A stretch of DNA of 64,000 bases from Methanobacteriota archaeon (lineage in GTDB: Archaea > Thermoplasmatota > Thermoplasmata > SG8-5 > DAIRED01): assembly GCA_043799545.1 (NCBI GenBank), contig JAZDNO010000023.1, positions 9,360 to 73,359 of the forward strand, in the 5' to 3' direction. The notes below the pieces were generated by a model. That model saw only the letters and a list, made by a program, of their open reading frames with translations, had not been told where the DNA came from and searched no databases. This document shows positions 10,610-30,100 of this stretch, piece after piece (within the stretch, counting starts at the first letter, position 1; every line of letters begins with the position of its first letter). The position numbers were made by a program, and so were the translations under genes.

Positions 10610-11164
10610 GTGAGGCAATCTGTCCGTGCTCTCGTCGCGGTGGCGTTCGCCGCCACTTTACTATCCGCTTGCGTGAATGCCAGCGCCGCTTCCATTACCC
10701 CCACCGTGTCTCCGACGCGTGGGAGCATCAGCGCTGAGTACGCCTTCGTAGTCAGGTACTCGGGGCAGCTGGCCGTCTCCAGCGCCACGGTCTACATCAA
10801 CGGCGAGGCCCGCGCCATGGGTGAGGTAGACCCCGCGGACCAGAACGTCACGAACGGCAAGGACTACTCCCTTGTCACGAAGCTGCCCGAGGGCGCGAAC
10901 GTTTACTATTTCCTGGTCGTCGACGCCAACGGGACAGAGTACCGCAGCGCGGCCGGAACTGTGGTCGTGGACCCGCTCCTGGAATTCGGGCACTTCGACG
11001 TCGCGCTCGCGGTGCTGCTGTTCATGCTCCCTCTCGCATACGCCATGCTCCTGATGAGGCGGGCCACGAAGGCGCTGGAGAAGGTGGCGAAAAGGCTGGA
11101 ACCGAAGGATGAAAAACCCGAAGCTGGCATCAAGGAGCCAGAGGCTCCTCTGAATCGTGGCTGA
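10610..11164 (+). CDS. Secreted Ig-like domain protein with C-terminal TM anchor
   Basis: Signal peptide (RALVAVAFAATLLSACVNASA), beta-rich domain, hydrophobic helix followed by RR. Start GTG 10610 or TTG 10601. Confidence 0.75.
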   Translation: MRQSVRALVAVAFAATLLSACVNASAASITPTVSPTRGSISAEYAFVVRYSGQLAVSSATVYINGEARAMGEVDPADQNVTNGKDYSLVTKLPEGANVYYFLVVDANGTEYRSAAGTVVVDPLLEFGHFDVALAVLLFMLPLAYAMLLMRRATKALEKVAKRLEPKDEKPEAGIKEPEAPLNRG

Positions 11165-12239
11165 GCGCGGAGCCGCACGAAGCGCAGGCCAGGTCTTCGG
11201 GCACGCACCCGGCATGGTACGTCCGCCCGCACTCGCATTCGGCGAACTTCTGCGTTTTTACCAATTTGCTGCAGGCCGCGCAGCGCCTCCTCCTCCCCAT
11301 CGGGAGCTCGTTGCCGACGCCGAGCACCTTGAACATTATCCCCCAGAACAGGAGTATCCAGGCCATGAAGATGAATATGCCCGCGTTGTTGTGGGTCCAC
11401 GTCAGCGCCTCGGGCCCGTAGTTGACGCCGACGAGGACGATTAGCGCCATCCTGATGACGTTGGCGTACCACGCCATCACCACTCCCACAAGGAGGAGGA
11501 CTCCCACGCGCGCGTCGAACTTCTTGTATTCTATGGCGACGAATGCTGCGAAGGCGGAGATGAAAATCGTCACCGAATAAAGCCCGGTGCAGGAGAGCCC
11601 GATGGAAACGGCCTGCTGGAATCCGTCCGTGCCGATGTAGTTGATTATGTTGTGCCGGTTCGGGTCGAGCCAGTTGTCCACGCCGAAGATGGAGAGCAGC
11701 CCCGAGGTCGGGCGCGTGAGCAGCCATTCGGTCCATGGAGTATCGGTGTTCGCTTCGGTGAGGGCTCCGTATTTCAAACTGTATATCGTCGTCGGGACGA
11801 CCAGAATCGCGAAGAGGAATGCGAAGAACAGGAATGCGAAATCTCGCTCGGCCGCGTATTTCGATGGGACGTAGTTGTATGCCAGCAGTATCGCGCCCAG
11901 GAGCAGGGCGACGTAGTCGTTGCTGCCGAGCTGGATGGCGCCCGCGGTCGCCAGGTTGTACGCGACGACGAGGATTATCGCCGCCACTCCGCCCACGGGC
12001 ATCAGGTCGGCGAGCCTGCCGTTCAGGGTGACGGCGTGGATGAGCCTTCCCGCCAGGTTGTCAGATGGTTTTTTCTCCTCCCGCTCGGAACCCCTGTAGC
12101 CCCACGAGAGGATCGCCAGCCCTATGGCGAAGAGCGTGGCGCCGAAGAGCCTGTTCAGGTGGCTCAGCAGAATCATCACGTCGAGCCCGGCGAAGAGGAA
12201 GACGAGCCCGACTAGCAGCTTCATGCGCCCGCCGCGCAT
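11130..12239 (-). CDS. Archaeosortase/exosortase (ArtC-like) with C-terminal C4HC3 zinc finger
   Basis: Multi-TM. Catalytic Cys (SCTGLYS), Arg (ANVIRM) and His (WTHNN). Tail CAAC..CECG..YHAGC..CASC. Confidence 0.9.
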   Translation of the reverse strand: MRGGRMKLLVGLVFLFAGLDVMILLSHLNRLFGATLFAIGLAILSWGYRGSEREEKKPSDNLAGRLIHAVTLNGRLADLMPVGGVAAIILVVAYNLATAGAIQLGSNDYVALLLGAILLAYNYVPSKYAAERDFAFLFFAFLFAILVVPTTIYSLKYGALTEANTDTPWTEWLLTRPTSGLLSIFGVDNWLDPNRHNIINYIGTDGFQQAVSIGLSCTGLYSVTIFISAFAAFVAIEYKKFDARVGVLLLVGVVMAWYANVIRMALIVLVGVNYGPEALTWTHNNAGIFIFMAWILLFWGIMFKVLGVGNELPMGRRRRCAACSKLVKTQKFAECECGRTYHAGCVPEDLACASCGSALSHDSEEPLAP

Positions 12240-13980: not shown

Positions 13981-14184
13981 CTCCCTTTCCTCCTTGCTAG
14001 ACGCATGGCATGCTCCGATGATATATTAGCTTTGCTTCCGGAAGGTCATCCGCGTAGTTTGGCTAGGCGCTTCTCCGGCAACCGTCCAGTCATCAAAGTC
14101 AAAATATGCGCCAATAAGAAACCTATAAATAGCCATGGAATCATTTTGTCTATTAGAGATTGAGCGGTTCGGCGGAGCATCCAA

Positions 14185-16038
14185 ATGGCGATGAAGAGTT
14201 TGGCGTTATTGGTCGGTATAGCAATCGCAGTGAGTTCATTAGGGTTGACGACATATGCTCGGACGTCGGAGACGAAACCGATGCATTGGCTAGCTCCTTA
14301 TGGTTACGAAGGGATGATTTACTGGCCGGACGGCACAACATTATTAGACGATGAAACGTCAGCGAATTTCAATATGATGATTTGTATTGACGACGATAAC
14401 GACGGGATTGTATGGAATCCTGGTACAGGACTGCCAGAGGATGAGCGGTACTACGTCTGGAGCGACGCTGGGATGAACGGATTTTGTGCAATCGATGATT
14501 CTAATATCCCTGGTGCAGCGTACTACGCCGAGTCATTTTGTGTCGGATTACCGGGAGGAGTTGGGTTAACCTTCAGAGTGTGGGTGAACGGCTCGAAGTT
14601 CACCTCAGTCGATTCGCAGGACGGATATTGCGGCAAGATGGGGGCGACGCCACAGGCGGACGGCACGTACTCGGTAGCGGACTCGACGTTTACGTTCCTA
14701 CCCGGCGCTTCCATGTGGCACGACATGCAGATACCCGGACCACCATTGAGTGACATTATTCCACCAATAGTGATTTCAACATATCCCCCGCAAGGAACTG
14801 ATGTTATGGATCCGTATGTGATCATAAGAATCGATTTCAATGAGGCAATCAATATCACCTCAGTCCTGTATGCAATAGAGCCAGAGCCAGACGACATAAG
14901 CGCGAGTTGGAGCAACAGCAATAAGACAATGTGGATAAACCATTCGATATTTGATGGCGGGATATTTTACTGGGCGAACATCACTCAAGCCAAGGACAAG
15001 GCTGGCAATCCTTTGAATCCTACGCCTTATTCCTTGTTTTTCGCAGTGTTAGCGTATCCAAATTCCTGGTCATCACCGTTCGGGATGGAGGGATACGTTT
15101 ATCTTCCGAATGGGACAACATTGCTACTGGGTGAAACCGCGTCGAATTTTGAAATGATATTTTGCGTCGATGCTGATAACGATGGACAGTATTATAATCC
15201 CAAGACCGGGGAGGGTGACGTTATTCACTGCTACAGCGATGAGGGAATCAATGGCTATCAGCCCTTGGATGATACATACATCGACACCAGCTTTTGGCAA
15301 TATACGATGCAACCTGGATACCCAGGTGGATATAACAATAAATATAAAATTTGGATAAATGGCTCAAAGCTGATTACCACAAACTCCCAGGACGGATGGT
15401 GCGGCAAGCCGGGGTCGATACCCTTGGCTGACGGAACATATTCCCCAACGGACCAGATATTCACGTTCCCGCCCACGGGGGGTAGTGTATGGCAGAACTC
15501 TAAGATTCCCGGGCCACCGCAGCCAACATTCAAAGTTCCCGTCGTCGCCGGCTGGAACCTCATTTCGGTGCCACTAATCCCGTTGGTCACTGCGCTGCCA
15601 ACCCCCCTAATGGACAACGACGGAGACACGCAATGGACAAGGGCTATGTGGTACGACCCGTGGGACACAGCCGACCATTGGAAACAATACAACAGCGTTT
15701 GGAACCCAGCCCTCAACGACCTTGAAGGTGTCGATGGTAATATTGGAGTCTGGCTGTATGTCACAACAGTCGGCGACGCTTACATCAACGTAACCGGGAG
15801 CGAGCCCACAAGCACGGCAATCCAGCTAAAAGCAGGCTGGAATCAGGTAGGTTACCCATCCATCGCGCCGAGGACAGTTTCCGACACCTTCTGGGGAACT
15901 GGTGCAGACATAGTGGAGGTTTTCGATCCGATACAACCATACATGACCAAAACCGTCTCCGCCTCCTATGTGATGGTCCCTGGAAAAGGGTACTGGGTGC
16001 ATGTGAATACTGATACGGTCTGGGCGGTGACCTGGTAA
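14185..16038 (+). CDS. Secreted surface protein: domain A + Big_5-like Ig + domain A + tandem GWN C-terminal modules
   Basis: Signal peptide; two copies of EGxxYxxDGTTLL..ICxDxDNDG..SQDGxCG..IPGP; C-terminal AGWNLISVP/AGWNQVGYP..GKGYW. Confidence 0.85.
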   Translation: MAMKSLALLVGIAIAVSSLGLTTYARTSETKPMHWLAPYGYEGMIYWPDGTTLLDDETSANFNMMICIDDDNDGIVWNPGTGLPEDERYYVWSDAGMNGFCAIDDSNIPGAAYYAESFCVGLPGGVGLTFRVWVNGSKFTSVDSQDGYCGKMGATPQADGTYSVADSTFTFLPGASMWHDMQIPGPPLSDIIPPIVISTYPPQGTDVMDPYVIIRIDFNEAINITSVLYAIEPEPDDISASWSNSNKTMWINHSIFDGGIFYWANITQAKDKAGNPLNPTPYSLFFAVLAYPNSWSSPFGMEGYVYLPNGTTLLLGETASNFEMIFCVDADNDGQYYNPKTGEGDVIHCYSDEGINGYQPLDDTYIDTSFWQYTMQPGYPGGYNNKYKIWINGSKLITTNSQDGWCGKPGSIPLADGTYSPTDQIFTFPPTGGSVWQNSKIPGPPQPTFKVPVVAGWNLISVPLIPLVTALPTPLMDNDGDTQWTRAMWYDPWDTADHWKQYNSVWNPALNDLEGVDGNIGVWLYVTTVGDAYINVTGSEPTSTAIQLKAGWNQVGYPSIAPRTVSDTFWGTGADIVEVFDPIQPYMTKTVSASYVMVPGKGYWVHVNTDTVWAVTW

Positions 16039-17816
16039 TGAATGGCCTGGCGTTGTTGGTCGGCATGGCAATCGCGGCGAGTTGTATTGGAATAACCACA
16101 TCGGCCACCACATCTGATATTGAATTAAAAGGATGGCCTGAGGAAGGCCAGTGGTTCCTTGAGGGAATGATTTACTGGACGGACGGTTCAACAATCCTGG
16201 ATGCAGAAACTCAAGCGAATTTTAATATGATAATTTGCATTGACTATGATGGCGATGGCCTGTTTTGGAACCCAGGCACCGGATTACCTGTAGACGAGGC
16301 TGACTACTGTTTCAGTGACGCGAATATGAATGGCTACGGGGCGATAGACGACTCGAACATCCCGATGTGGGGATATTGGAGCCACACAATCCAAGTCGGA
16401 CAGCCTGGTGGCGAGGGTAACATGTTCAAGGTCTGGGTGAACGGCTCTAAGTTCACAACAATTGCATCGCAGGATGGATACTGCGGCAAGATGGGGGCGA
16501 CGCCTCAGGCGGACGGCACGTATTCTGCGATAGACTCAACATTTATTCTCGGACCAGATGGCATGCAGCTGTGGCACGACATGCAGATTCCCGGGCCCGC
16601 CGCAACGAAGACCTACGGCCCTGCCGCGCCGACCAACGTGCGAACGTGGCTCGTCGGCTCGCAAGCCCTGGCGACAGACGTCAACGTTTCGTGGAACGCC
16701 GTGGCTGGCGCGACCGGTTACAACATCTACCGCGGGACCGCGCCCTACTCGATTGACTTCGCAGCCCCGCTCAACGGGGGTGTGCCAATCGTGGCGCTTC
16801 AGTATGTCGACGCGGGAGCCATTGCAGGCGCTCCGCAGTACTACTACTCTGTCAGGTCAGTCGCCGGGGGCGTCGAGAGCGCCACCAGCGAGACAGTTGG
16901 CAAGTACACGATGAGCCTGCTGGCCGGCTACAACGCCTTCGGCTGCCCGCTCGCCCTCTTCCCGGAGAGGGTGGACTACCAGGGCCACCTGCTCTGCGAC
17001 TGGCGCCTGATAAGGGCCACGAGCGCGGACAGGATTCCGAACGCAACGACCATCTTCACCTATACCTACGCCACCCAATCATGGAAGGGCAGGGCGGCGA
17101 CAACCCCCGATGCGATACCGCACACGGTAATCAACCCGCATGATGACGGGCTCCTGATGTATATGTCGCAGGCTGACAGCTACACCTGGGTCGGGTGGCC
17201 GGCGGAGCAGATAAGGACCGCCAACTTCTCCGGGGCGACGCCGCTGTCAGCGCCTGGCAACTTCCATGTAGAGTGGTCCGGAGCAGACATCCGGTTGACT
17301 TGGGATGCAGTCGTCGGCGCCAACCGCTACGAAGTCTACACCGCGACCAGCAGGTCTCTGATGAATTACAACTTCGCATCCCCTGCGTACAGCGGAACCA
17401 ATCTGTTCTGGGTGGACGCAGGAGCCAATACGACGGTCGGACAGAAGTATTACATCGTGGTGGCCGTCGACGGCGATGGCGACAAGGGTGACAGCTCTTA
17501 CGCAGCGGGGAAATGCACGAGGAGTCTGGGGGCCGGGTACAACGCGATAACCACGCCGTTCGAGTCTTTCAGGGGCCACACGGATACTCAAGGCCACCAG
17601 CTTTGCGACTGGACGCTTATCGACGGCGGCTCGCCGTTCAGCTACAGGCGCATCCCGAACGCGACAGTGGCATTCACCTTCGATGTTTCGGGGCAGCGAT
17701 GGGTGGGAAGGTCGTCGTCGACGCCGGAATTCGTAAGCCATCGGATATTGGAAGTGCAGGGCATGGGAATGATGGTTTACATGGGAGCCGCAGGCACGTA
17801 TACCTGGGTCGGTTGA
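16038..17816 (+). CDS. Secreted surface protein: domain A + two FN3-like/GWN-like C-terminal units (chimera)
   Basis: Signal peptide homologous to that of 14185; C-terminal two-thirds strongly similar to the C-terminus of 20302. TAATG overlap with the upstream gene. Confidence 0.85.
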   Translation: MNGLALLVGMAIAASCIGITTSATTSDIELKGWPEEGQWFLEGMIYWTDGSTILDAETQANFNMIICIDYDGDGLFWNPGTGLPVDEADYCFSDANMNGYGAIDDSNIPMWGYWSHTIQVGQPGGEGNMFKVWVNGSKFTTIASQDGYCGKMGATPQADGTYSAIDSTFILGPDGMQLWHDMQIPGPAATKTYGPAAPTNVRTWLVGSQALATDVNVSWNAVAGATGYNIYRGTAPYSIDFAAPLNGGVPIVALQYVDAGAIAGAPQYYYSVRSVAGGVESATSETVGKYTMSLLAGYNAFGCPLALFPERVDYQGHLLCDWRLIRATSADRIPNATTIFTYTYATQSWKGRAATTPDAIPHTVINPHDDGLLMYMSQADSYTWVGWPAEQIRTANFSGATPLSAPGNFHVEWSGADIRLTWDAVVGANRYEVYTATSRSLMNYNFASPAYSGTNLFWVDAGANTTVGQKYYIVVAVDGDGDKGDSSYAAGKCTRSLGAGYNAITTPFESFRGHTDTQGHQLCDWTLIDGGSPFSYRRIPNATVAFTFDVSGQRWVGRSSSTPEFVSHRILEVQGMGMMVYMGAAGTYTWVG

Positions 17817-17825
17817 GAGGGAACG

Positions 17826-19217
17826 ATGCAAGCCAAAGGAAATCGAAAGGCACCCGCAATCGTCCTAGCGGGAATGCTGCTGTCGGGCGCGTTCTGCATG
17901 CTGGCATACGCGCAACCGTCAGGGACAAACTCAACACTAGTGGTCACCAATCCTTTTCTTTTGGAAGGCTATGTGTATCATTGGAATGGCACGCTGCTGA
18001 CGGGCGTGAGTTCATCATTATTCATGATGATGATATGCGTGGACGAGGACGAAGACAATCTGTATTGGCCAGAGGATTCAACTGATTATAACCACGTTTA
18101 CAGCGATGAGGGCATGAACGGGCTTCCCCCGATCGACGACAGCTACATCGAGTCGAACGGTTTCTATACGATAACCCTGCCAACAGGTGGTCCAGGCGGA
18201 TATGTAAAAAACTTCAAAATCTGGGTGAACGGGTCGGCATTTCCAGATTATGTATCGCAAGACGGCTACTGCACAACTCCGGGGGTTATCCCCCAACCGG
18301 ATGGCAGATATCTCCCGGCGCAGCAGATATTCACATTCCCAGCAAGCGGAGCCTCGTTTTCTCTAGATATCCAGGTTCCAGTGGGTTGGTTTCATTATCC
18401 CTCCACGGCCACCGGGCCAGTAGGTTCGTCTGCGTCCGCCAATTTGGTAATCACATACGAACCGGATTGCGGATGCTTCGGAGACACTTTACTATATTAT
18501 TCTAATGACAAGAATAGCACTTGGTATTACATCGGAACGGAAGATGATATGGTTAATGAGGACGGTCTGTTCGCGTGGACCGCTCCCGACAGCGGCGAAT
18601 ACTGGTGGTACGCTGGAAACGGTTACGGCGCAATAGCAGACGACCCTCCGGGACCTGGAACGCCCGCCGAGGCTGGCCCTTACGTCATAACCCTCCCGCC
18701 GCCATCATTCAATATTCCCGTTATCGCTGGATGGAACCTGGTCTCGACGCCCCTCGTGCCGGGGAACGCGACGATGCCGGACCCGCTTCTTGACTACGAT
18801 GGAGATACACAATGGACGCGAGCCCTATGGTACGACCCTTGGGACTCGGCAGACCACTGGAAGCAGTATAATGTCGCGTGGAACTCATCGATGAACGACC
18901 TGAAGAGCGTCGACAACAAGATGTGCATCTGGCTGTACGTCACGACGGTCGGGAACGGTTACATCAAAGTCACCGGAAGCCAGCCCAGCAGCACGGGAAT
19001 CCCGCTGAAGGCCGGCTGGAACCTAGTGGGCTACCCATCCATCACGCCGAGGACCGCTTCCGACACCTTCTGGGGGACAGGCGCGGACATCGTGGAGGTC
19101 TTCGACCCGGCGCAGCCGTACATGACCAAGGCCGTCGGCCCGACCTACCTGATGACCCCCGGAAAAGGGTACTGGGTCCACGTGAATGCCGACACCGTTT
19201 GGACGGTCGATTGGTGA
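17826..19217 (+). CDS. Secreted surface protein: domain A + domain D + tandem GWN C-terminal modules
   Basis: Signal peptide; C-terminal ~165 aa closely match those of 14185 (DGDTQWTRA.WYDPWD.ADHWKQYN, SDTFWGTGADIVEVFDP). Confidence 0.85.
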   Translation: MQAKGNRKAPAIVLAGMLLSGAFCMLAYAQPSGTNSTLVVTNPFLLEGYVYHWNGTLLTGVSSSLFMMMICVDEDEDNLYWPEDSTDYNHVYSDEGMNGLPPIDDSYIESNGFYTITLPTGGPGGYVKNFKIWVNGSAFPDYVSQDGYCTTPGVIPQPDGRYLPAQQIFTFPASGASFSLDIQVPVGWFHYPSTATGPVGSSASANLVITYEPDCGCFGDTLLYYSNDKNSTWYYIGTEDDMVNEDGLFAWTAPDSGEYWWYAGNGYGAIADDPPGPGTPAEAGPYVITLPPPSFNIPVIAGWNLVSTPLVPGNATMPDPLLDYDGDTQWTRALWYDPWDSADHWKQYNVAWNSSMNDLKSVDNKMCIWLYVTTVGNGYIKVTGSQPSSTGIPLKAGWNLVGYPSITPRTASDTFWGTGADIVEVFDPAQPYMTKAVGPTYLMTPGKGYWVHVNADTVWTVDW

Positions 19218-19265
19218 CGGCGCAACCTTTTCCTACCGCAACGCCATTCCCCTCGCGGTCTTCCC

Positions 19266-20129
19266 ATGAAAGTCATCGCAGGAACCTCATCGCAAAAGCT
19301 CGCATCCAGCCTCTCCACGGAACTCAAGGCCCCCGTGGCCAACGCGGAGATAAAGCGCTTCCCCGACGACGAGTGCTACGTGCGCATCCTCGACGACATG
19401 AGGGGCAAGGTCGTCGTTGTCGTTCAAAACACGTACCCGGATAACAACCTCGCCGAGCACCTGATTCTGCAGGACGCCGCGAGGCACTCGGGCGCTAAGA
19501 GCGTGATATCCGTGATACCTTACTTCGGCTACGCCCGGCAGGACAAGCTCTTCCGGTCGGGGGAGGCGGTAAGCGCGCGCCTGATGGCCCGCGTGGTCGA
19601 GGGGAACGCTGACGCCACCATTTTAATAGACATACATAATATAACAACGTTAGAAGAATACCGCAAGCCCGTCGCAAACGCTTCGGCGATACCGTCCCTC
19701 GCCCGATTTTTGGCATCGAAGGAGAGCATAGACGCGGTCCTCTCGCCGGACAAGGGCTCGCTCGCGAGGGCGGGCGAGGCCGCGAGGCTGATGAACTGCA
19801 AGTTCGACCACCTTGAAAAGACGCGCATCGACGGCGCGACAGTCGTCGTAAAGCCGAAGGAGCTTGACGTCGCAGGGAAATCCGTCGCAATCGTGGACGA
19901 CATCATCGCGACGGGAGGGACCATCGCCGCGGCCACGGCGCAGCTGAGACAGTGCGGGGCGAAACGGATTGTCACGGCATGCACGCACGGACTTTTCACG
20001 GGCGGAGGCCTGCAGAGGCTGCAGGGCGTTTGCGATGCGGTGTACTCTTCGGATACGCTAGAAAACGAGTCGACGGCATATTCTCCCGCGCACGAAGTGG
20101 CGAGGGCTATCAAATCTATATCTATATAA
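19266..20129 (+). CDS. prs: Ribose-phosphate pyrophosphokinase
   Basis: RFPDDECYVRI, IPYFGYARQDK, SPDKG and PRPP-binding VAIVDDIIATGGT. Confidence 0.97.
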   Translation: MKVIAGTSSQKLASSLSTELKAPVANAEIKRFPDDECYVRILDDMRGKVVVVVQNTYPDNNLAEHLILQDAARHSGAKSVISVIPYFGYARQDKLFRSGEAVSARLMARVVEGNADATILIDIHNITTLEEYRKPVANASAIPSLARFLASKESIDAVLSPDKGSLARAGEAARLMNCKFDHLEKTRIDGATVVVKPKELDVAGKSVAIVDDIIATGGTIAAATAQLRQCGAKRIVTACTHGLFTGGGLQRLQGVCDAVYSSDTLENESTAYSPAHEVARAIKSISI

Positions 20130-20224
20130 AACGCCCCCCCTGCCGTTCGAGGGATGTACCAAATCCTATTTAAGTAGTCTCGGGCTTTTCATGAACAATG
20201 TGTGCAAGGGCTCTACCTAAATCG

Positions 20225-20295
20225 TTATATAGGCGCGTGGGATTACACGGCCGGGGGCTAATAGAGCCGTTTGTACCGATAGTTGGATAGGAGGA
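20225..20295 (+). promoter_or_regulatory. TATA box (TTATATA 20225-20231) and SD (AGGAGGA 20289-20295) of the 20302 gene
   Basis: Consensus archaeal motifs at plausible spacing upstream of ATG 20302. Confidence 0.6.
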
Positions 20296-20301
20296 AAAAG
20301 A

Positions 20302-23300
20302 ATGAATACTAGGACAATAAAGGGAGCAAGCCTGATTGTGGTGGTCGCTATGGTGGCCATGGTTTTCGCTGGAGTGCAGATTCAGGCGGCGCCCGCCGGA
20401 GCCTACACGAGGTACGGCGACGGCGGTGCCAACGTCGCACCTGCTAGCACAACCATCTCGGCTTGGATAGATGGAGTTGAGTACGGGTTGAACACATCGT
20501 CCGTAACCGGAACCTACACGATTGAAACCGCTGGTGACGATATATTCGACACGACAATGAAAATCGGCGGCCTGAACGGGGAGACAGTCCGTTACGTGCT
20601 TGGAACCGAAAGGCTGATGACCGGCCAGTTGAGCCGGTTTGCGACCCAGAACGCGGCATTTACCGCCTGGGGCATCACCCTCGGCGCCCTCACTGAGGCA
20701 GCGGCCGGAAGCCAGGCGAGGCTGTTGAAGATAAACAACGTGTCTTCGCAGTCCACGTTGGAATCCGCAGCCGGAGTACCAAACGATTACATAGTCATCT
20801 GGAACCCCGCAGGGGCGACAATCGACATCACGACATACTCAATCGCCGTCGGAGCCGCAGCTGCGCAGCCGATAATCGCCGGCGACATCTGGACGTACAG
20901 GATGTACGCCTGGACGACCAACCCGGTCCCCGTGAGCGGCTTCATCGCCATCAACATGGCGAAGTGGGGCGGGCTCGCCACAGCCGGCAACTCGATAAAG
21001 CTCATCCACACGGCGACTGGATTCATCGTCGACCGCGTCGAATACGGCAACATCGCAGACCCCCAGAACACGATAATGACGAACGCGACTGCACCCGGTT
21101 CGGCCCAGCAGATCCGCAGGACCGCCGCCGGCGCAGACACGAACTCGTGCAGCGTAGACTTCTCCGCACCGGTGGCCCAGTGGCTGCCACAGGATTTGAT
21201 TGCACCGACGGTCAATGCGGGCTCTGACGAGACGAGGAACGCCTTGTTCTCAACGACGGCCGGCAGGGTAACACCTGCGAGCATTACCGACACTGGCGGT
21301 TCAGGAGTATCCGCCGTCGTCTCCTGGACTTCCGTCCCGGCGGGAGTCGTATTCGGAACCCCTGCTTCGCTGACGACTACGATAAGCGCACCTGCTGGCA
21401 ACGGAGTAACATACACGATAAGGCTGACTGGATATGACAATGCTGGCAACAGCGCGTGGGACGAATTCACGCTGCTCTGGGACACGGTCGGTCCGACAGT
21501 GAACGCGGGCTCCGACGAGACGAGGAACGCCGTGTTCTCATCGACGGCCGGCAGGGTAACACCTGCGAGCGCGTCTGCGACGGGAGCCGCAATCACGACC
21601 TACGCCTGGACATCTGCCCCGGCTGGCGTGATATTCGGAACCCCGGCAGCGTTGACGACGACAATCTCCGCCCCGGCGGGCGAAGTGACGTACACGGTCA
21701 GGCTGACGGTCACGGACGCAGCCACCAACGCGGTGTTCGACGAATTCACGCTGCTCTGGGACACGGTCGGTCCGACAGTGAACGCGGGCTCTGACGAGAC
21801 AAAGGACGCGATATTCACCACGACCGTGCCTGCGGACAGGACGGTCATCTCAAGCGCATCGGCAACTGGCGCTCCAATCTCGACCTACGCCTGGACAGCA
21901 GCCCCGGCGGGAGTCGTATTCGGAACCCCGGCAGCGCTGACGACAACGATAACCGCAGCAGTCGGCGTTTACACGGTCACACTGACGGTCACTGACGCTG
22001 CAGGCAACGTTGTCGCGGACTCGTTCCAGCTTACATGGAACCCGCCTGCGACCGCATGGGCGACCGCGACCGGACCGACCGGAACCGGAGCAGTCGGAAT
22101 CACAATAACGTACACGTACTCAGTGGCCCCGGCACCGACCTCGGTCGACCTCTACTACACCCTGGATACGGTTTCGCCATGGACATGGGTCTGGGCGGTC
22201 AACGACGCGCCAGTCGACGGCAGCATAGCTTATGTACTCCCGGGCAACGGGGTCTACAGCTTCTACGCGTCCGCAGTCGGCGGCGGCTCAGTCGAGCCGA
22301 ACCCGCCGGCGCCAACGGATGCGCCGGAAATCGGAACGTACACTGTTGGCAGCTCCAAGCTATTCGGGCCATCAGCACCGTTGAACGTCAGGATATGGCT
22401 TGTGGGCTCGCAAGCATTGGCGACGGCCGTCAACATCTCGTGGAACGCCGTGGCCGGCGCGACAGGGTACAACATCTACCGCGGAACCACGCCCTACTCG
22501 ATAGACTTCGGAACGCCGCTCAACGGCGGAGTGCCGATAGTGGCGCTCCAATACGTTGACGCCGGAGCCATCGCAGGCTCGGCACAGTACTACTACTCGG
22601 TCAGGGCAATCGCCGGAGGCGTCGAGAGTGCAAGCAGCGCAACCGTAGGCAAGTACACGATGCCCCTTCAGATCAACTACAACGTCTTCGGCATACCGCT
22701 GGAACTATTCCCGGAGAGGACTGACTACCTGGGGCACCTCATGTGCGACTGGAGGCTAATCAGGGCGACGAGCGTGGACAGGGTACCGAACGCGACGACC
22801 ATCTTCACCTTCACCTACGCGACGCAGTCCTGGAAGTCCAGGTCTTCCACCACACCTGACGCAATCGCTCACGTGGCAATCAACCCGCAGGAGGACGGCA
22901 TTGAGATATTCATGCAAGTGGCCGACAGCTACACGTGGCTGGGAACCCCCGCAGAACAGGTACGCAAGGCCAACTTCACTGGCGTGACCCCGCTGGCGGC
23001 ACCCGCGAACTTCAAGGTACGCTGGGCCGGAGTATTGGGCGGCAGCAACAACGACGTGAGGCTGACATGGGATGCGGTACCCGGCGCGGACCACTACCAC
23101 GTCTACACATCGACGACAAGGTCACTGGCCAACTTCAACTTCGTGGCAGCCCCCGCATATTCCGGAGTCGCATTGACCTGGGACGACGCGGGAGCCAACA
23201 CGACTGTCGGAGCAAAGTACTACATCGTCGTCGCGGTTGACGGCGATGGGGACCTGGGAGACTCCGCATACGCGGTCGGCAAATACACGCGCAGCCTCCT

Positions 23301-23580
23301 GAAGAACTACAACGTCTTCACGACGCCCTTCGAAGTCTTCAGGGGCAGGGCAGACTACTTGGGACACCAGCTCTGCGACTGGAGGCTCGTCAGGGCCACG
23401 AGCCAGGACAGGATACCGCTCTCCACGACCATCTTCACCTTCACGTACGCAACGCAGTCGTGGAAGTCCAGGTCGTCCACAACACCGGATGCCATCGCTC
23501 ACGTCCAAATACCGACAATGGGCTCGGGAGTCGAAGTATTCTTGAGCGACCCCAGCACATACACGTGGCTGAGCACCTAA
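20302..23580 (+). CDS. Large secreted surface (S-layer candidate) protein: lamin-tail-like domain, three PKD-like repeats, domain D, two FN3-like/GWN-like units
   Basis: Signal peptide; LTD-like INNV..NDYIVIWNP..IVDRVEYG; PTVNAGSDE repeats; Ala/Thr/Gly-rich; no C-terminal TM. Confidence 0.85.
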   Translation: MNTRTIKGASLIVVVAMVAMVFAGVQIQAAPAGAYTRYGDGGANVAPASTTISAWIDGVEYGLNTSSVTGTYTIETAGDDIFDTTMKIGGLNGETVRYVLGTERLMTGQLSRFATQNAAFTAWGITLGALTEAAAGSQARLLKINNVSSQSTLESAAGVPNDYIVIWNPAGATIDITTYSIAVGAAAAQPIIAGDIWTYRMYAWTTNPVPVSGFIAINMAKWGGLATAGNSIKLIHTATGFIVDRVEYGNIADPQNTIMTNATAPGSAQQIRRTAAGADTNSCSVDFSAPVAQWLPQDLIAPTVNAGSDETRNALFSTTAGRVTPASITDTGGSGVSAVVSWTSVPAGVVFGTPASLTTTISAPAGNGVTYTIRLTGYDNAGNSAWDEFTLLWDTVGPTVNAGSDETRNAVFSSTAGRVTPASASATGAAITTYAWTSAPAGVIFGTPAALTTTISAPAGEVTYTVRLTVTDAATNAVFDEFTLLWDTVGPTVNAGSDETKDAIFTTTVPADRTVISSASATGAPISTYAWTAAPAGVVFGTPAALTTTITAAVGVYTVTLTVTDAAGNVVADSFQLTWNPPATAWATATGPTGTGAVGITITYTYSVAPAPTSVDLYYTLDTVSPWTWVWAVNDAPVDGSIAYVLPGNGVYSFYASAVGGGSVEPNPPAPTDAPEIGTYTVGSSKLFGPSAPLNVRIWLVGSQALATAVNISWNAVAGATGYNIYRGTTPYSIDFGTPLNGGVPIVALQYVDAGAIAGSAQYYYSVRAIAGGVESASSATVGKYTMPLQINYNVFGIPLELFPERTDYLGHLMCDWRLIRATSVDRVPNATTIFTFTYATQSWKSRSSTTPDAIAHVAINPQEDGIEIFMQVADSYTWLGTPAEQVRKANFTGVTPLAAPANFKVRWAGVLGGSNNDVRLTWDAVPGADHYHVYTSTTRSLANFNFVAAPAYSGVALTWDDAGANTTVGAKYYIVVAVDGDGDLGDSAYAVGKYTRSLLKNYNVFTTPFEVFRGRADYLGHQLCDWRLVRATSQDRIPLSTTIFTFTYATQSWKSRSSTTPDAIAHVQIPTMGSGVEVFLSDPSTYTWLST
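21205..22040 (+). repeat. Three tandem ~279-bp PKD-like coding repeats
   Basis: PTVNAGSDET units; 53-bp exact identity at 21460-21512 and 21739-21791. Confidence 0.9.
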
Positions 23581-23589
23581 GCGTAAAAG

Positions 23590-23613
23590 GGGTGGGCCCG
23601 AACGGGCCCACCC
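23590..23613 (+). terminator. Perfect 10-bp stem-loop after 20302 (terminator or mRNA 3' stabiliser)
   Basis: GGGTGGGCCC-GAAC-GGGCCCACCC, 9 nt after the stop codon. Confidence 0.65.
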
Positions 23614-23616
23614 TCC

Positions 23617-23630
23617 TTATATATTTAAAG
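23617..23630 (+). promoter_or_regulatory. TATA-like element for the 23711 gene
   Basis: TTATATATTTAAAG directly after the hairpin; purine-rich SD-like sequence before ATG 23711. Confidence 0.5.
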
Positions 23631-23710
23631 TCCTAGGAATAAAGGCATATGGACATGACAAAATATCTAGAAGGGAGGCAATAGGAGAAAATAAGATAGG
23701 AGATGAAAAA

Positions 23711-26700
23711 ATGAAAACAAGAGTAAAGGTATTGGCAACTGTAATGGCGTTAGGGATGTTGCTGAGTGTTTTTGGAGCACTCTCCGCTCGCGCAACGTGG
23801 CCGACCCCGTATGGTTTTGAGGGTATGGTATACCTCACAGACGGCTCGACACTCCTTGACGGGGAAACAGTAGCGAGCTTCGACATAATAATCTGCGTGG
23901 ACCAGGATTCGGACTTAACTGTTTGGAACCCGGGCACTGGATTGCCAGCAGACGAGGCAGTGAACTGTTTCAGTGACGCAGGAATGAATGGCTATGTTCC
24001 GTGGATAGACGACTCGAACATGCCTGGGGCGGCGTATTACGCCACCACATTCCAGGTTGGACAGCCTGGGAGCGTCGGCGACACGTTCCGCGTGTGGGTC
24101 AACGGCTCGAAGTTCGGGTCCGTCGTCTCGCAGGACGGATACGTCGGAGCCCTCGGGGCGACGCCTCAGGGAGACGGAACATACGCAGCGATAGACTCGA
24201 CGTTCACATTCGGAGCTGGCGCGAGCATGTGGTTCGACTTCCAGATTCCGGGACCAGGGTTTGCACCAGACCCGACAGCGACTGTATCGAGCCTGGCCCC
24301 AGTGTCACCATCGGCTGACAACACGCCCGCCGTAACCTACACCCACGCAAACAACCCGGCATCCGTGACCGTTTACGCATGGGACACCGCAGGACCGGGT
24401 CCATGGGTCGCAGTAGGGACCGATGGGACAGTAACTGGACCGCCGGACACGTTCGATACGAACGTAATGGCCGCCGGAACCTATCTGTTCACGGCCATAC
24501 CGACTGGCGGAAACCCGACTGACCCGGTTCCAACGGTTGTTGGAGACTCCGAATTCGGACCGTACACCATCTTACCCGCGGGCGACGTAGTCCCGCCGGA
24601 CACAACAATCGTCAGCGTACTGCCGGCCTTCGTCGGTCAGTGCCCCAACACGGTTACAATCACCGTGTTCGGTGACGACACGGGAACGGGCGGTTCAAAC
24701 ATCCTGTCCGCACAGTACCGCATCGACAGGAACGACGACGGCGACTTCAACGACGCATTGCCTGCATGGTACGGTCTGGACGAGGCCTGGCACGCTGTGG
24801 ACGACACAGCCACGGCAGCAGGGCCGACAAGGACATTCACCGAGGCCATAGACCTCCACAACTGCACGATAACCGCCGGAACGTTCAACATCGAAGCCCG
24901 CGCGGCTGACGTTGCAGGTTACGACGCAACACCGGCATCGACGAACTTTGCCATCGCTGACTCAACATCGCCGGTCAATGCAAGGATCGCACCGACCCCG
25001 ACCGACGGCAACATTAGAGCACCTGGCGACACCGTAATAAGGATAACGGCCACAGACTTCAGGATGACAACAGCGCTGATAACTGTGACAGCACCCACCG
25101 CTTCGGTTGTCAATGCCCCAATGACACAGATAAACTGGGCAAAGGGCTCGAACATCGTCACCTTCGAATACACGATAACTGAGAACACCGATGGCGCAGT
25201 AACATGGTCCGTAGACACAGACGACGGCCCCAACCCAGCCACGACGACCGCCGGTTTCTACACAGTCCAGAGCGGAATGCTCGGACCGAACGCGCCCTAC
25301 AGCATCGCTGGCAGGGTCTTCCAGTACAACGGTGCGGCAGGCCTCTACAACCCATTGATACAGGACAACGCCAATGTCATAGTGCAGACTGTGAACTTTA
25401 CTGGCGATCTGAAAACGTACGGCCCGCAGAACACTGACGCGGCAGGCAACTTCTTGTTCACCGTGCAGCCGGTCGACCAGCTCGTTTGGGGCAACCCGAT
25501 ATTCGTGCAGGCGACCAACGCTGGCGGAATTGCATGGATGGGCTGGAACCAGTCGACAATCGTGCTGAACAGCGCGAGCTCGTTCTGCAACGTCACATAC
25601 GGCGTCCCATACAACCTGACGGTCACGGCGGTCGCAGACTGGACGCTCGGTGAAATCATCGGCGTCAACGCAGTCGCGCCCGGCACGGCAGTCCAGGTAA
25701 GGGTTGAAGTCTATGACAACCGCTCGCTCATGGCAACCGGTTACTACGGCAACCTGAGAATCGACACTAACGACACGAACGCTGCGGTCCTAGTCTGGGG
25801 CGGCGCTGACCCGAACAACATAGCGTTGGACGGAGTCGGCGGTGGATTCACAGACGGATTCTACGACAACACAGTGCAGCTCTGGACCCCGAGGCCATTC
25901 GGCTGGGGAGTCTGGGTCAACGACACAACCGGCGGCGACAACTCGCTGGTAGACGCGTCGGCGGCATTCCTGCTGCCATACGCGGCAGTCAGCGTCACTG
26001 ACAACACGCACATACGCATAGTCTCCGGCGGAATAATGTGGACCCTGTCGGTAGGATGGAACCTCGTTTCGCTCACCAAAGGCTACACCTTGTCCGCGTT
26101 CAGCGCATTCGAGGCAACCCAGTACATCGAGGACGCCAGGGTCAGGTATGGCCTTGGAGCATCCGCGATTGTAATGGCGAGCCTGACGAACGGTCAGCCA
26201 TCGACAATCAGCTACGACACATACACCTACGGACCCGGTGGATCGGACTTCTTGATCAACAACGACATGGCCTACTGGGTCTACGTCGATGTCGCCATAC
26301 CGATGGTCTACATACCCTGCAACGACATCACACTGCCCAACGACGCGACCGTCGGCATAGTGGCCAACGTCAACACCGTGACACTGCTCGCTGGCTGGAC
26401 GATGGTCAGCACCGGAATGAACGAGGCAAGCAACGTCTTCGGTGTGGGCGTCAACGCTCCGCTGCTGTCTGATATCGATGGCAACCAGGGCAACGGCGCG
26501 GCCGGCTCCAGATTCTGGACCGGTGGCAGCTGGGTTGCGGGCGTACACTATGCGTGGTACGACCAGCCCGGTGGAATCGCAGACTCTAACACGGGAGTCG
26601 ACTACCTCACTGGAGGCGTCGTGCTTTCGTCTGCGGCAGCTTGGAACCCGGCAGCACAGACCTACCACACATGCGTCTACGATGCGTGGTTCGGACTGTG

Positions 26701-26806
26701 GGATTCCGGTCTCGGGTACAACAACTACGTCGACCAGGTGTACTACGCGAGCGGATTCTGGGTGTACTCTGCAGGTGGAGCAATAACGTACAGCGTGATC
26801 GCTTAA
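23711..26806 (+). CDS. Large secreted surface (S-layer candidate) protein: domain A, domain D, several Ig-like domains, tandem GWN-like C-terminal modules
   Basis: Signal peptide; PYGFEGMVYLTDGSTLL..IPGP; VGWNLVSL, AGWTMVST and SGFWVY; no TM anchor. Confidence 0.85.
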   Translation: MKTRVKVLATVMALGMLLSVFGALSARATWPTPYGFEGMVYLTDGSTLLDGETVASFDIIICVDQDSDLTVWNPGTGLPADEAVNCFSDAGMNGYVPWIDDSNMPGAAYYATTFQVGQPGSVGDTFRVWVNGSKFGSVVSQDGYVGALGATPQGDGTYAAIDSTFTFGAGASMWFDFQIPGPGFAPDPTATVSSLAPVSPSADNTPAVTYTHANNPASVTVYAWDTAGPGPWVAVGTDGTVTGPPDTFDTNVMAAGTYLFTAIPTGGNPTDPVPTVVGDSEFGPYTILPAGDVVPPDTTIVSVLPAFVGQCPNTVTITVFGDDTGTGGSNILSAQYRIDRNDDGDFNDALPAWYGLDEAWHAVDDTATAAGPTRTFTEAIDLHNCTITAGTFNIEARAADVAGYDATPASTNFAIADSTSPVNARIAPTPTDGNIRAPGDTVIRITATDFRMTTALITVTAPTASVVNAPMTQINWAKGSNIVTFEYTITENTDGAVTWSVDTDDGPNPATTTAGFYTVQSGMLGPNAPYSIAGRVFQYNGAAGLYNPLIQDNANVIVQTVNFTGDLKTYGPQNTDAAGNFLFTVQPVDQLVWGNPIFVQATNAGGIAWMGWNQSTIVLNSASSFCNVTYGVPYNLTVTAVADWTLGEIIGVNAVAPGTAVQVRVEVYDNRSLMATGYYGNLRIDTNDTNAAVLVWGGADPNNIALDGVGGGFTDGFYDNTVQLWTPRPFGWGVWVNDTTGGDNSLVDASAAFLLPYAAVSVTDNTHIRIVSGGIMWTLSVGWNLVSLTKGYTLSAFSAFEATQYIEDARVRYGLGASAIVMASLTNGQPSTISYDTYTYGPGGSDFLINNDMAYWVYVDVAIPMVYIPCNDITLPNDATVGIVANVNTVTLLAGWTMVSTGMNEASNVFGVGVNAPLLSDIDGNQGNGAAGSRFWTGGSWVAGVHYAWYDQPGGIADSNTGVDYLTGGVVLSSAAAWNPAAQTYHTCVYDAWFGLWDSGLGYNNYVDQVYYASGFWVYSAGGAITYSVIA

Positions 26807-26822
26807 GCAAGAGCGAAACCTG

Positions 26823-26844
26823 ATCCGCGCCGAAAGGCGCGGAT
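26823..26844 (+). terminator. Perfect 9-bp stem with GAAA tetraloop after 23711
   Basis: ATCCGCGCC-GAAA-GGCGCGGAT, followed by a T-rich tract. Confidence 0.65.
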
Positions 26845-27106
26845 AAAACCTTTATACATTTCTTATTTCTTCTGGCATAGTGAAAACGATGCGCAAGCTT
26901 TTTTAAGGGATGAGCATAAAGTTAATATAGAGAAAGTGCAATTCTGAGTTAGACTAGTGGACATTAACATCCGGAACGGTCCGCCAGTGTGTCGTAGGTA
27001 GGGAGTGTCATGGAGTGTCGTGAGAAAGGGGCTGTGAGCCCCGCCTTAGCCAGCATGAGCCTTACAGTTGTTGTACCAGTGACCGTCATCGACGGAGGTG
27101 CGTTAC

Positions 27107-30100
27107 ATGTCTAAGCGCGAGAGCGGGATAGAGTGTCCGGTTTGCGGAGCATCCAATCCAACTGGCGATTCCGAGTGCAAGGAGTGCGGTTTCATATTCG
27201 AGGCTGACCGGGCTGTGGCGAAGCCTCCTGTGGCAGCAGCCGCTCCGAAAGGAGTAGTAGCTCCCTCCTCGACGCGCGAGTGCCCCAGCTGCATGGCCAT
27301 AATCGAGGCATCCGACGCGGAGTGCCCCATCTGCGGCGAGAAGTTAGTGCCAACCTTCGTCAAGGAGACTGGCCAGGAGATATCGTGTAAATCCTGCGGG
27401 GCATTGCTCGATTCGTCGTTGACGGTCTGCCCGATATGCGGGGAAGGCCTGGTAGAGGTCAGGGAGGAGCCGGCGCCGGAAGCCCAGGCCGACGAGTTCA
27501 CATGCAGCAACTGCGGGTCGATACTCTCGTTCGGTATGACCGAGTGCCCGGTCTGCGGCGTGAGGTTCGACCAGCCGTTGACCCCCCCAATGCCGGTCTC
27601 GGCGGTTCCAGCAGAACCTGTCGAGATACCCATGGAAACGCCCGAACCCGCTGTAGCCAAGGACGAATCATGGGACCTTGGGTCTGTGGGCGGCCAGGCT
27701 GTTGAACCTGCGGATGCCCCATACGAACCGGAACAGAGGGAGGAACCAGCCGCTCCGGGGATAGATGCAATTCCAGAGGAGCCGATGCAGGTCGCAGAAG
27801 AGCCGCCAATGCCAGTTCCATCAGCTCCGCCCGAGGCGGTGCCGGCGAAGGTCAAGCTGGCGGACGACGAGTTCGCATGCCCGTCATGCTCCGTTCCGGT
27901 CAAGCTTGGAACGGACCGCTGCGAATCGTGCTGGGCGGACGTGGCCGGATACGTCAGGTGCCCGTCATGCGGGACGGCGTCTGGACCCGGGGTGGAGGTC
28001 TGTCCGGACTGTTTCGCCAAGCTGCCATTGGCCGCGGCGCCGACGGCGATGGCGCCTGAACCGGAACTCGAGGTTCCCGAGGATAAAGAAGAGCCCTCGC
28101 CCAAGGAGGGCGACGCCGATTGCCCGTCGTGCGGAAGCCCGGTCCTCAAGGAAGACGTGATGTGCGCCGACTGCGGAATGATACTCATAAATGAGGAGGA
28201 GCCGCCGGTCAAGAAGCGCGAGCCGAGGAAGAAGCCCATCCAGCAGCTCGGAGTATGGGAGAAGCGCGCTGTGATAATCGTGATTGCGCTCCTCATGAGC
28301 TCCGCCCTGATGCCATTCATATTCAGCCTGCCGCAGGTCGAGCGCGACCGGATAATATTCGACGGGTCATTCGACGACTGGGGCCAAGTTAGGGTCAACC
28401 ACGACGACGTGGGAGCGCTGCCGAGCGAGGTGGACATTACTGCCTACCAGGTGATATCCGACGGCAGGAACATCTACTTCTCGGAGACCGTGCTGGGCAA
28501 TATCTTCAGCAGCGTCCGCGGGGAGACGATGAGGGTATTCGCCGATACAGACCGGAATCCGGCCACTGGCTATTCCATACGCGGCACGGGCGCCGACTAC
28601 ATGGTCCGGGTCTACGGATGGGGCGGCGTCGTCAGGAGCGCTTCCTGCCTCAGGTTCGCCACCGCCACAAACCAGAACGACTTCACAGCTTTCCAGAGCC
28701 ACGCCACGGCGTACCCGTACGCCTCGGGAAACCAAACGGAGGTCCGCGTGCTCCTTGCAGACATGGGGATGAACGAAGAGACACGGGCGAACATAGTTTT
28801 CTACATGGGCAACTCGCTCGGCCAGCATGACTTCTCCGACCTGGTCGTGTCGAACATCGGTGGGGTTCTCAACGTCAGGCAGGTCCCTTCCGCGAGCGTT
28901 CTCGCGGACGGCTGGATACCTGTCGGAACCTCGACTGAGGTGATGACCTTCGAGATGGCGGCTGCGGGCCAAGACATCTCATTAACGGGATTGGAGACGC
29001 ACGGGCTCGTCCAGAACCGGACCCTTCCGCTAATGATCGCCGATGGGAATACCGTGCTCGCCAGCGTCATAGCCAACCCGACCGCTGCCCAAGCAGGCGA
29101 TGTGGTCGAGGCCTTGTTCGCCGCAGCGGACTTCACGCTGCTGGATGGTTCCACGGCCGTCACGGGCGGAGCCGCCAGGGCGTATGCCGGCCAACCTGCA
29201 GCCGGGGTGACGATAGACGGCGCCTTCGCAGATTGGCGTAATGAAGCGATCTCCGACGACCCGACAACCGACGTCATGGACCGGAGCTCTACGAATTACA
29301 TCACTTCTGATAACATCAACATCCTGGGGTACGCCAGCGGGACCGCCGCCAGCGCCCAGGGGCAGAGCCTCAACGTTTACGTGAACGTTGCAGGCCATGC
29401 GCTTGGCGGAACCGACGTGCCGGTCGAGGAATCGGCTCACCTGGTGCCCCCGAGCAGCACTAGGTCCCAGGCTACACCGTCTGCAAGCCAGGCGCAATCG
29501 AACAATACCCGTTCGGAACAAGCGCAAACGCCAGCCGGAACAAGGCAGGCGGCCGCTGAGCGCCCGGAGCTGGCGCCGCCGGCGCCGAAGGCGAAGACGG
29601 GCGAGGACGCAATCCTCGTGCTGCTGGACACGGACAACCGTTCGGCGACTGGATACCTGGCCGGCGGGCTCGGCGCGGACATGCTCCTAGAGGTAAAGGG
29701 GCGCGAGGGAAAGGTGACTTCGACGATTCTGTACGGTTTCTCCGGCGCGGACCAGAGGATTTACTCCTGGAATGCGGTGGGAAACGGCACCGCCGCCTGC
29801 ACGGGCTCGGAGATTGAGGTGGGAGTACTGCTTTCCGATATCGGAATAGCTGCCTACGCTGAACTTGCAGTCCTGATTCATGTGGTCGACTGGAAGGAGG
29901 ACAAGGACGCTGCGAACGTGAGCTGGGACGCAGCTGGCAACGCGTTAGGGACCACTAGGGCACCCGCTCCGCCCAACCAGATATACGGTTGGGTAAAACA
30001 CGCGAACAACTCGATAGCCAACGGCACTACATTGGCGGTGATGATTGCGGTGAGCGGGATAGCGAGTAGCTACGTCGTGCGCACGAACAGTACGACTGGC

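Follow-up and report, generated by a model that had tools for sequence, protein, structure and literature searches.

Five open-reading frames (ORFs) on the + strand of a Thermoplasmata genome encode exported proteins that share a set of domains in different combinations. They lie between positions 14185 and 26806 of the 64,000-nucleotide stretch analysed here (the window: positions 9,360-73,359, forward strand, of contig JAZDNO010000023.1 in GCA_043799545.1, an assembly of 31 contigs and 2.06 Mb in total), and all coordinates below are relative to it. We refer to the five proteins by gene start as P0001 (14185), P0002 (16038), P0003 (17826), P0004 (20302) and P0005 (23711), the ORFs being 617, 592, 463, 1092 and 1031 codons long respectively. 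Their common modules have incongruent histories, base composition breaks at module borders, and relatives carry the same modules in other architectures. We consider it likely that these genes form a cluster for adhesin-like cell-surface proteins, each of several domains and exported by Sec, which would have become mosaics through old domain shuffling and been kept by selection.

Shared modules of the five proteins

P0001 (14185..16038, 617 residues) consists of a signal peptide, a first copy of a domain which we call A (A1, 14281-14754), an immunoglobulin-like (Ig) domain of the Big_5 family (14755-15054), a second A (A2, 15055-15525) and a C-terminal domain C (15526-16035). P0002 (16038..17816, 592 residues) joins a signal peptide and a single A (16125-16610) to cassette B, made of two units (B1, 16623-17237; B2, 17238-17813), each a fibronectin-III (Fn3) domain followed by a beta module of ~100 residues. 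P0003 (17826..19217, 463 residues) has a signal peptide, a divergent A (17943-18401), a domain D (18402-18695) and C (18696-19214), whilst P0004 (20302..23580, 1092 residues) has a signal peptide, an LTD-like head X (20389-21201), three PKD domains (21202-22056), D (22057-22353) and both B units (B1, 22369-22980; B2, 22981-23577). P0005 (23711..26806, 1031 residues) carries a signal peptide, A (23792-24286), D (24287-24610), a trunk designated M1/M2 (24611-26020) and a tail that is a divergent form of C (26021-26803). C itself is a terminal domain of 165-175 residues built from two related units, each of which starts GWN-L-[IV]-[SG]-x-P and ends G-[YF]-W-[VI]; we call it the twin-GWN domain.

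A preliminary description of this DNA had proposed that modules A, B, C and D are shared among the five proteins, and every link it listed was recovered by BLASTP (E 1e-10 to ~0). The copies of A, two in P0001 and one each in P0002, P0003 and P0005, are 35-62% identical (E 1e-30 to 5e-76). B is common to P0002 (residues 189-591) and P0004 (residues 684-1090), with 67% identity over 410 residues and an E-value of ~0. The C tails of P0001 and P0003, taken alone, are 71% identical, and the longest BLASTP alignment, with 47% identity over 316 residues (E 8e-96), extends into A2 of P0001 and D of P0003. D of P0003 (residues 193-288) matches that of P0004 (residues 587-682) at 34% identity (E 5e-10), and the weaker D that had been noticed in P0005 shows 25-29% identity, yet aligns with eight D copies from relatives. 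Pfam searches likewise returned the Ig domain of P0001 as Big_5 and three PKD stretches in P0004; the LTD assignment of the P0004 head gave only a weak direct match (E 0.076), but a metagenomic homologue, P0144, carries PF00932. The end of P0005, described as C-like, is a distant true relative of C (hhalign 97.3%, E 1.9e-11), whereas no Ig family was detected by Pfam in P0005 itself, where one had been proposed. Similarly, the IPGP ending ascribed to domain A is present in four of the five copies as [QK]IPGP, but the P0003 copy ends QVPVG. No further copies of the shared modules were found elsewhere in the window. D is probably Ig-like, as three of eight copies weakly match Big_13 in Pfam; its profile matched no PDB sequence at E up to 1. 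A self-comparison of positions 14001-27000 placed the shared modules at 68-78% identity at the DNA level and returned nothing beyond them, no dedicated inverted-repeat search having been made.

Each of the five proteins has a single N-terminal hydrophobic segment, and none has a membrane helix or other hydrophobic segment at its C-terminus. By their signal peptides all five would be exported by Sec, with ectodomains drawn from a small, lineage-restricted kit of A, D, Big_5, PKD and the LTD-like head. The heads (A, D, Ig, PKD and LTD-like) are putative binding or spacer domains, for which adhesin-like or substrate-binding functions are the likeliest, and each chain would end in a pair of beta modules with neither a membrane nor a sortase-type anchor: the twin-GWN domain in P0001 and P0003, its divergent form in P0005, and the two Fn3-plus-module units of B in P0002 and P0004. 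These terminal modules may keep the proteins at the cell surface. The arrangement probably arose by tandem duplication, replacement of heads and tails at domain borders, and gene fusion or fission, all of them old events, with a probable gain of A-bearing genes from a lower-GC relative, after which selection would have preserved the resulting architectures. The sharing of modules, their conflicting histories, the breaks in composition and the varied architectures of relatives are observed, whereas we infer that the heads adhere or bind, that the tail keeps the proteins on the surface, and where the A modules came from.

Module histories, composition and age

In a tree of the 25 C copies of this genome the tails of P0001 and P0003 are sisters (support 99/97). 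The A tree shows a different relationship: the first A of P0001 (P1_A1) groups with those of P0002 (P2_A) and P0005 (P5_A) and with a further copy on contig C12 (100/99), the second (P1_A2) is sister to that group, and the A of P0003 (P3_A) lies outside. Approximately unbiased (AU) tests rejected the groupings P1_A1+P3_A (p 0.0003) and P1_A1+P1_A2+P3_A (p 0.0001); P1_A2+P3_A was not rejected (p 0.055). P0001 thus fits an A2-C gene of the P0003 type to which an A1-Ig front like that of P0002/P0005 may have been added. The tails of P0002 and P0004 tell a similar story, as the B units of P0002 are closest to those of P0004 (77% and 60%, versus 47-52% to the copies in P0144 and in the related genome G007) although P0002 is headed by A and P0004 by X-PKD-D. 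P0002 is a chimera, an A head of the P0001/P0005 type on a B tail of the P0004 type.

Composition also changes between modules. In every A module the GC content at third codon positions (GC3) lies at 0.53-0.63, whereas B has 0.73-0.83 and C of P0003 has 0.80, against a genome median of ~0.77. Within P0002 it shifts at the module border from 0.59 in the head to 0.78 in the tail (p 2e-6), and within P0003 from 0.56 in A-D to 0.80 in C (p 8e-8). P0001 has low GC throughout (0.50, GC3 0.57, versus ~0.60 for the genome), lowest in the Ig module (GC3 0.49), and may be a later arrival than its neighbours. Loci with A in G007 have 45-47% GC, which fits, without proving, that the A-bearing genes were probably imported from a lower-GC lineage.

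The exchanges are old. Synonymous divergence (dS, by NG86) is ~0.9 or more for every pair of shared modules, and between this genome (G000) and the same-genus genome G001 it is 0.88-1.0 for prs, X and PKD (prs, 0.92). Even the youngest module exchanges thus date back about as far as the split of these two genomes, as a lower bound. Near-identical donor and acceptor cassettes or other signs of recent exchange were not seen at these levels of dS and of DNA identity, and two metagenome scans, one with P0002 and one with an alignment of four A copies, found no close relatives.

Architectures in relatives vary around a fixed point. The housekeeping gene prs (ribose-phosphate pyrophosphokinase, 19266..20129, + strand) lies within the array between P0003 and P0004 and serves as a synteny anchor; the order prs followed by an X-head gene is kept in G001, G002 and G004. 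At least four types of tail stand behind the X head: B in this genome and P0144, a single 'E' unit (an Fn3 domain with a different beta module) in G001 and two in G003, G010 and G013, unit pairs with no Fn3 in G004 and G032, and the twin-GWN domain directly in G016. The G001 gene at the position of P0005 has a different head and is collinear with P0005 only from residue 360 onward. In this genome, a locus on contig C22 (C22:90544-93700, L047) joins a BNR (sialidase-like) head to a trunk and tail of the P0005 type; the gene is broken into two ORFs that overlap (891 and 273 codons), which reflects a frameshift, a pseudogene or an assembly error. Three of the five architectures are conserved whole in distant metagenomic proteins at 34-46% identity: A-Ig-A-C of P0001 is collinear in P0128 (34%), A-D-trunk-tail of P0005 recurs in P0130, P0132, P0133 and P0136, and X-..-B of P0004 recurs in P0144. 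The D-C pair stands behind another head in P0010 and P0011, P0135 is a minimal A-C protein, and the paralogue on contig C12 has A-D deep inside a chain of 1,210 residues. Only the joining of A directly to B, as in P0002, was not seen elsewhere. Module trees congruent with whole-gene duplication, and an arrangement fixed across relatives, are thus not what was found: the trees conflict, architectures differ and GC3 jumps, and the proposal that these genes are mosaics holds, whole-gene duplication alone being insufficient.

We considered whether the five genes could instead derive from one or two giant ancestors by differential loss or fission, differing in the domains they kept and with no exchange among them. 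Such an ancestor has a counterpart in G007, where contig C28 (L033:11463-19376, - strand) encodes a 2,638-residue protein with the order A-D-..-B1-B2-A-D-Big_5-M1-.., three DUF11 and a twin-GWN C, uniting A, D, B1, B2, Big_5, M1 and C in one chain, and the sequence of B then A mirrors that of P0004 then P0005. The protein looks like a fusion of a P0004/P0002-type gene with a following P0005-type gene. Four observations, however, are at odds with loss as the sole process: the B tails of P0002 and P0004 are nearest to one another yet stand behind unrelated heads, the C tails of P0001 and P0003 (P1_C and P3_C) pair as sisters, which P1_A1 and P3_A do not, GC3 breaks at module borders, and the tails of X-head orthologues differ. 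Fission has probably contributed, but cannot be the whole story, and we regard loss and fission alone as an unlikely explanation.

Several points weigh against our main reading of the locus. The groupings submitted to the AU tests were picked after the C tree had been seen, and the low GC3 of the A modules could have a cause other than foreign origin. NG86 dS values near 1 at a GC3 of ~0.77 are close to saturation, so that the dating is coarse and only 'old' can be supported. Neither A nor B was found in G001, a fragmentary genome (84% complete, with a contig that begins at prs), and their lack there is to be read as 'not found' rather than 'absent'. For the tail unit of B, profile comparison gives no more than a hint of kinship with the GWN unit (hhalign probability 56-77%, best E 2e-5, against the first half of C, and 5% against the second), and it is therefore not established that all five proteins share the same kind of terminal module; profile comparisons of the 'E' units of relatives with the GWN unit likewise yielded no firm link. 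Lastly, B sits mid-chain in the 2,638-residue protein of G007 and so is not simply an anchor.

The twin-GWN tail and domain A

The twin-GWN tail and the rare domain A are the most interesting parts of the locus. The tails of P0001 and P0003 match a twin-GWN profile built from 52 sequences at E 1e-66 to 1e-70, and the two halves of the domain are related to each other by internal duplication (hhalign 98%, E 4.5e-14). Searches by tblastn and with a profile place C in 25-26 ORFs spread over many contigs of this genome; with few exceptions it forms the final ~170 residues of proteins that are 400-2,400 residues long. Among the 40 relatives searched, nearly every genome of the order gave 14-40 matches (two fragmentary ones gave 2 and 4), and C was also matched in about half of the 19 genomes that sampled other parts of the class; named database matches to the tail label their organisms 'Thermoplasmata archaeon'. 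In metagenomic proteins C ends BNR sialidase-like, beta-helix, papain (C1) and gingipain (C25) peptidase, CARDB, CAP, LTD and FG-GAP proteins. Rather than the local interchangeable cassette of the preliminary description, C is a C-terminal domain that occurs throughout the lineage on many exoproteins unrelated to one another, and because its terminal position on them is so strict, it may retain exported proteins on the cell surface. Four large proteins of this genome, on contigs C4, C5, C14 and C23, have near-identical twin-GWN tails (branch lengths 0.03-0.19), and two of them are interrupted by contig ends; this is either a recent expansion or a collapsed repeat breaking the assembly.

No Pfam or NCBIfam model exists for C. 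Its AlphaFold model is confident (predicted local distance difference test, pLDDT, 97.3; predicted template modelling score, pTM, 0.90), Foldseek found nothing in the PDB at E 0.001 or better, and a fold search in the ESM Atlas returned unnamed clusters only. An RCK_C-type fold was considered and set aside, the best VIA-align Z of 3.0 being too weak to use. C resembles the type-A C-terminal domain of the type IX secretion system (T9SS; Por_Secre_tail, PF18962 / TIGR04183) in that a single conserved, beta-rich domain stands at the C-terminus of many signal-peptide proteins which belong to one lineage but are otherwise unrelated. It is, however, about twice as long, has an internal duplication and is hosted by an archaeon, and there is no sequence match: in Pfam and NCBIfam searches neither PF18962 and TIGR04183 nor the Listeria GW module (PF13457) was hit. 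The fold searches listed none of them, which says little about fold. The T9SS is known only from Bacteroidota. The locus is a well-resolved case of this C-terminal domain, which is very common though uncatalogued and whose confidently predicted fold has no solved relative.

The breadth of C also bears on the suggestion that the five proteins are S-layer or coat subunits, alternative blocks of a surface lattice. In favour of this, the proteins are secreted without membrane anchors, and their genes have neighbours of cell-envelope type (flippase, sugar epimerase, glycosyltransferase, archaeosortase). However, the same tail closes enzymes such as sialidase-like, beta-helix and peptidase proteins, as one would expect of a retention tag more than of a lattice domain; A was not found in most relatives, the same-genus genome included, which would be odd for a core wall component; and no S-layer family matched in Pfam (E up to 0.1, all five proteins) or in NCBIfam (E up to 0.01; P0001, P0003 and P0005). 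We found no evidence pointing towards a lattice, which we consider very improbable; the five are more likely adhesin-like.

The means by which wall-less or thin-walled Thermoplasmata keep enzymes and adhesins attached to their surface are poorly understood. One speculative possibility, which we would not favour, is that the different tails (twin-GWN C, the P0005 form, the Fn3-plus-unit B and the 'E' units) are alternative docking modules, each addressed to a different envelope partner, such as the adjacent 6,088-residue fibre or a glycan layer. If this were so, a change of tail would re-address the binding heads, in an archaeal counterpart of cohesin-dockerin or SLH-type display, and surface display would be built on a fold with no solved relative.

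Domain A, which the locus defines as a new domain, is rare. An exhaustive HMMER search of 1.84 billion representatives found 12 proteins at E below 1e-10, and of the 41 genomes searched just three yielded A: this one, with seven copies of which six lie in the window and the other on contig C12, G007 with five and G004 with one; the latter two, the only relatives found with A, belong to another family. Weak matches over ~60 residues in actinobacteria were treated as spurious. No Pfam family matches A by sequence. Its model (pLDDT 91.9) is a decorated beta-sandwich for which Foldseek gave nothing at E 0.001 or better, whilst VIA-align placed the DUF3823 structure 4yok first (Z 6.7, root-mean-square deviation 3.0, 95 residues aligned), followed by the starch-binding domain of 1qhp (Z 6.3) and CnaB2 of 8bdw (Z 5.8). 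The model therefore points to the transthyretin / CnaB / CBM20 / DUF3823 class of sandwiches, as a fold class only, since at Z below 8 the resemblance may reflect only a common arrangement; in comparison with these A is ~60 residues longer and has long loops, an acidic DxDxDG-like loop and conserved Cys. In the 6,611-residue metagenomic protein P0131 a single A lies deep inside the chain (residues 2022-2168), so A is not confined to N-terminal 'head' positions; the C12 copy is likewise internal (residues 825-980 of 1,210). The locus amounts to a compact natural experiment: one rare head, A, occurs with three kinds of end, and these ends in turn follow unrelated heads, so that it reveals which parts act as units of their own.

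Probable gene conversion, known systems and neighbourhood

One tract of B2 in P0004 (23275..23504, + strand) resembles B1 of the same gene (22645-22874) and not B2 of P0002. Over B2 columns 141-180, 33/37 residues are those of its own B1 versus 16/37 of P0002 B2, and the tract shares 78% DNA identity with B1 overall and 66% at third positions, which looks like an old intragenic gene conversion and is the only clear trace of such an event. In the metagenomic protein P0144 a stretch of ~31 residues is identical between B1 and B2 at the same place, and intragenic homogenisation seems to recur in this pair. That heads and tails are still being exchanged by recombination or gene conversion, in a working repertoire akin to antigenic or phase variation, is highly unlikely, for although the P0004 tract, the stretch in P0144 and the differing architectures of relatives speak for it, the modules are only 68-78% identical in DNA with dS ~0.9 or more, the converted tract itself is 78% identical (66% at third positions), other organisms have the same complete architectures at 34-46% identity, and no invertible repeats (sought by no dedicated search), silent cassettes, recombinase, integrase or reverse transcriptase were found in the window. 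Pfam and NCBIfam scans of the window ORFs covered recombinases, integrases, transposases and reverse transcriptases with no match, and a diversity-generating retroelement or site-specific recombinase was likewise sought in the window and rejected.

As a 'recombination-built repertoire' the locus is ordinary: the shuffling of domains among surface proteins is a familiar process, and in this case an old one. It is a new example made from uncatalogued domains and not a new kind of system. The closest described archaeal phenomenon is that of the VARTIG modules of Thermococcales, in which the C-terminal Ig domains of secreted proteins vary by recombination with no integrase nearby (Makarova et al. 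2021, PMC8416519). Like VARTIG, the present locus is an archaeal cluster for secreted surface proteins of multi-Ig type; in both, relatives differ in the C-terminal parts and in how the genes are arranged, recombination is the apparent cause and no integrase lies in the vicinity. VARTIG, however, comprises a single large Ig protein whose last Ig domain is hypervariable, together with a sorting signal and a set of small downstream genes that varies, whereas here five paralogues share whole domains of other families, have no sorting signal and record old exchanges. Closest in kind are the adhesin-like proteins of the gut methanogens Methanobrevibacter and Methanosphaera, which (PMC11532034, PMC13658579) are similarly large, repeat-rich and secreted, with complex, variable architectures and many paralogues, but have other domain kits and a pseudomurein envelope; the likeness is one of kind only.

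Within the array, the stop of P0001 overlaps the start of P0002 by 1 base and P0003 begins 9 bases past the end of P0002, so these three genes are probably co-transcribed. An archaeosortase-family gene lies upstream (11130..12239, - strand), closest to ArtC but at 59.8 bits against a cut-off of 100. NCBIfam C-terminal sorting models gave zero matches in the three proteins scanned (P0001, P0003 and P0005), and because they lack a sortase-type tail the five proteins are not expected to be substrates of this enzyme (PGF-CTERM / PEF-CTERM type). Directly downstream of P0005 is a giant surface-protein ORF (27098..45364, + strand, 6,088 residues), which has no modules in common with the five genes at E 1e-3. 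By Pfam and NCBIfam assignments the neighbourhood is of cell-envelope type: upstream are a glycosyltransferase, a flippase, the archaeosortase-family gene, a sugar epimerase and a beta-helix protein, and downstream, beyond the 6,088-codon ORF, are more Fn3- and DUF11-bearing proteins, interspersed with tRNA synthetases.

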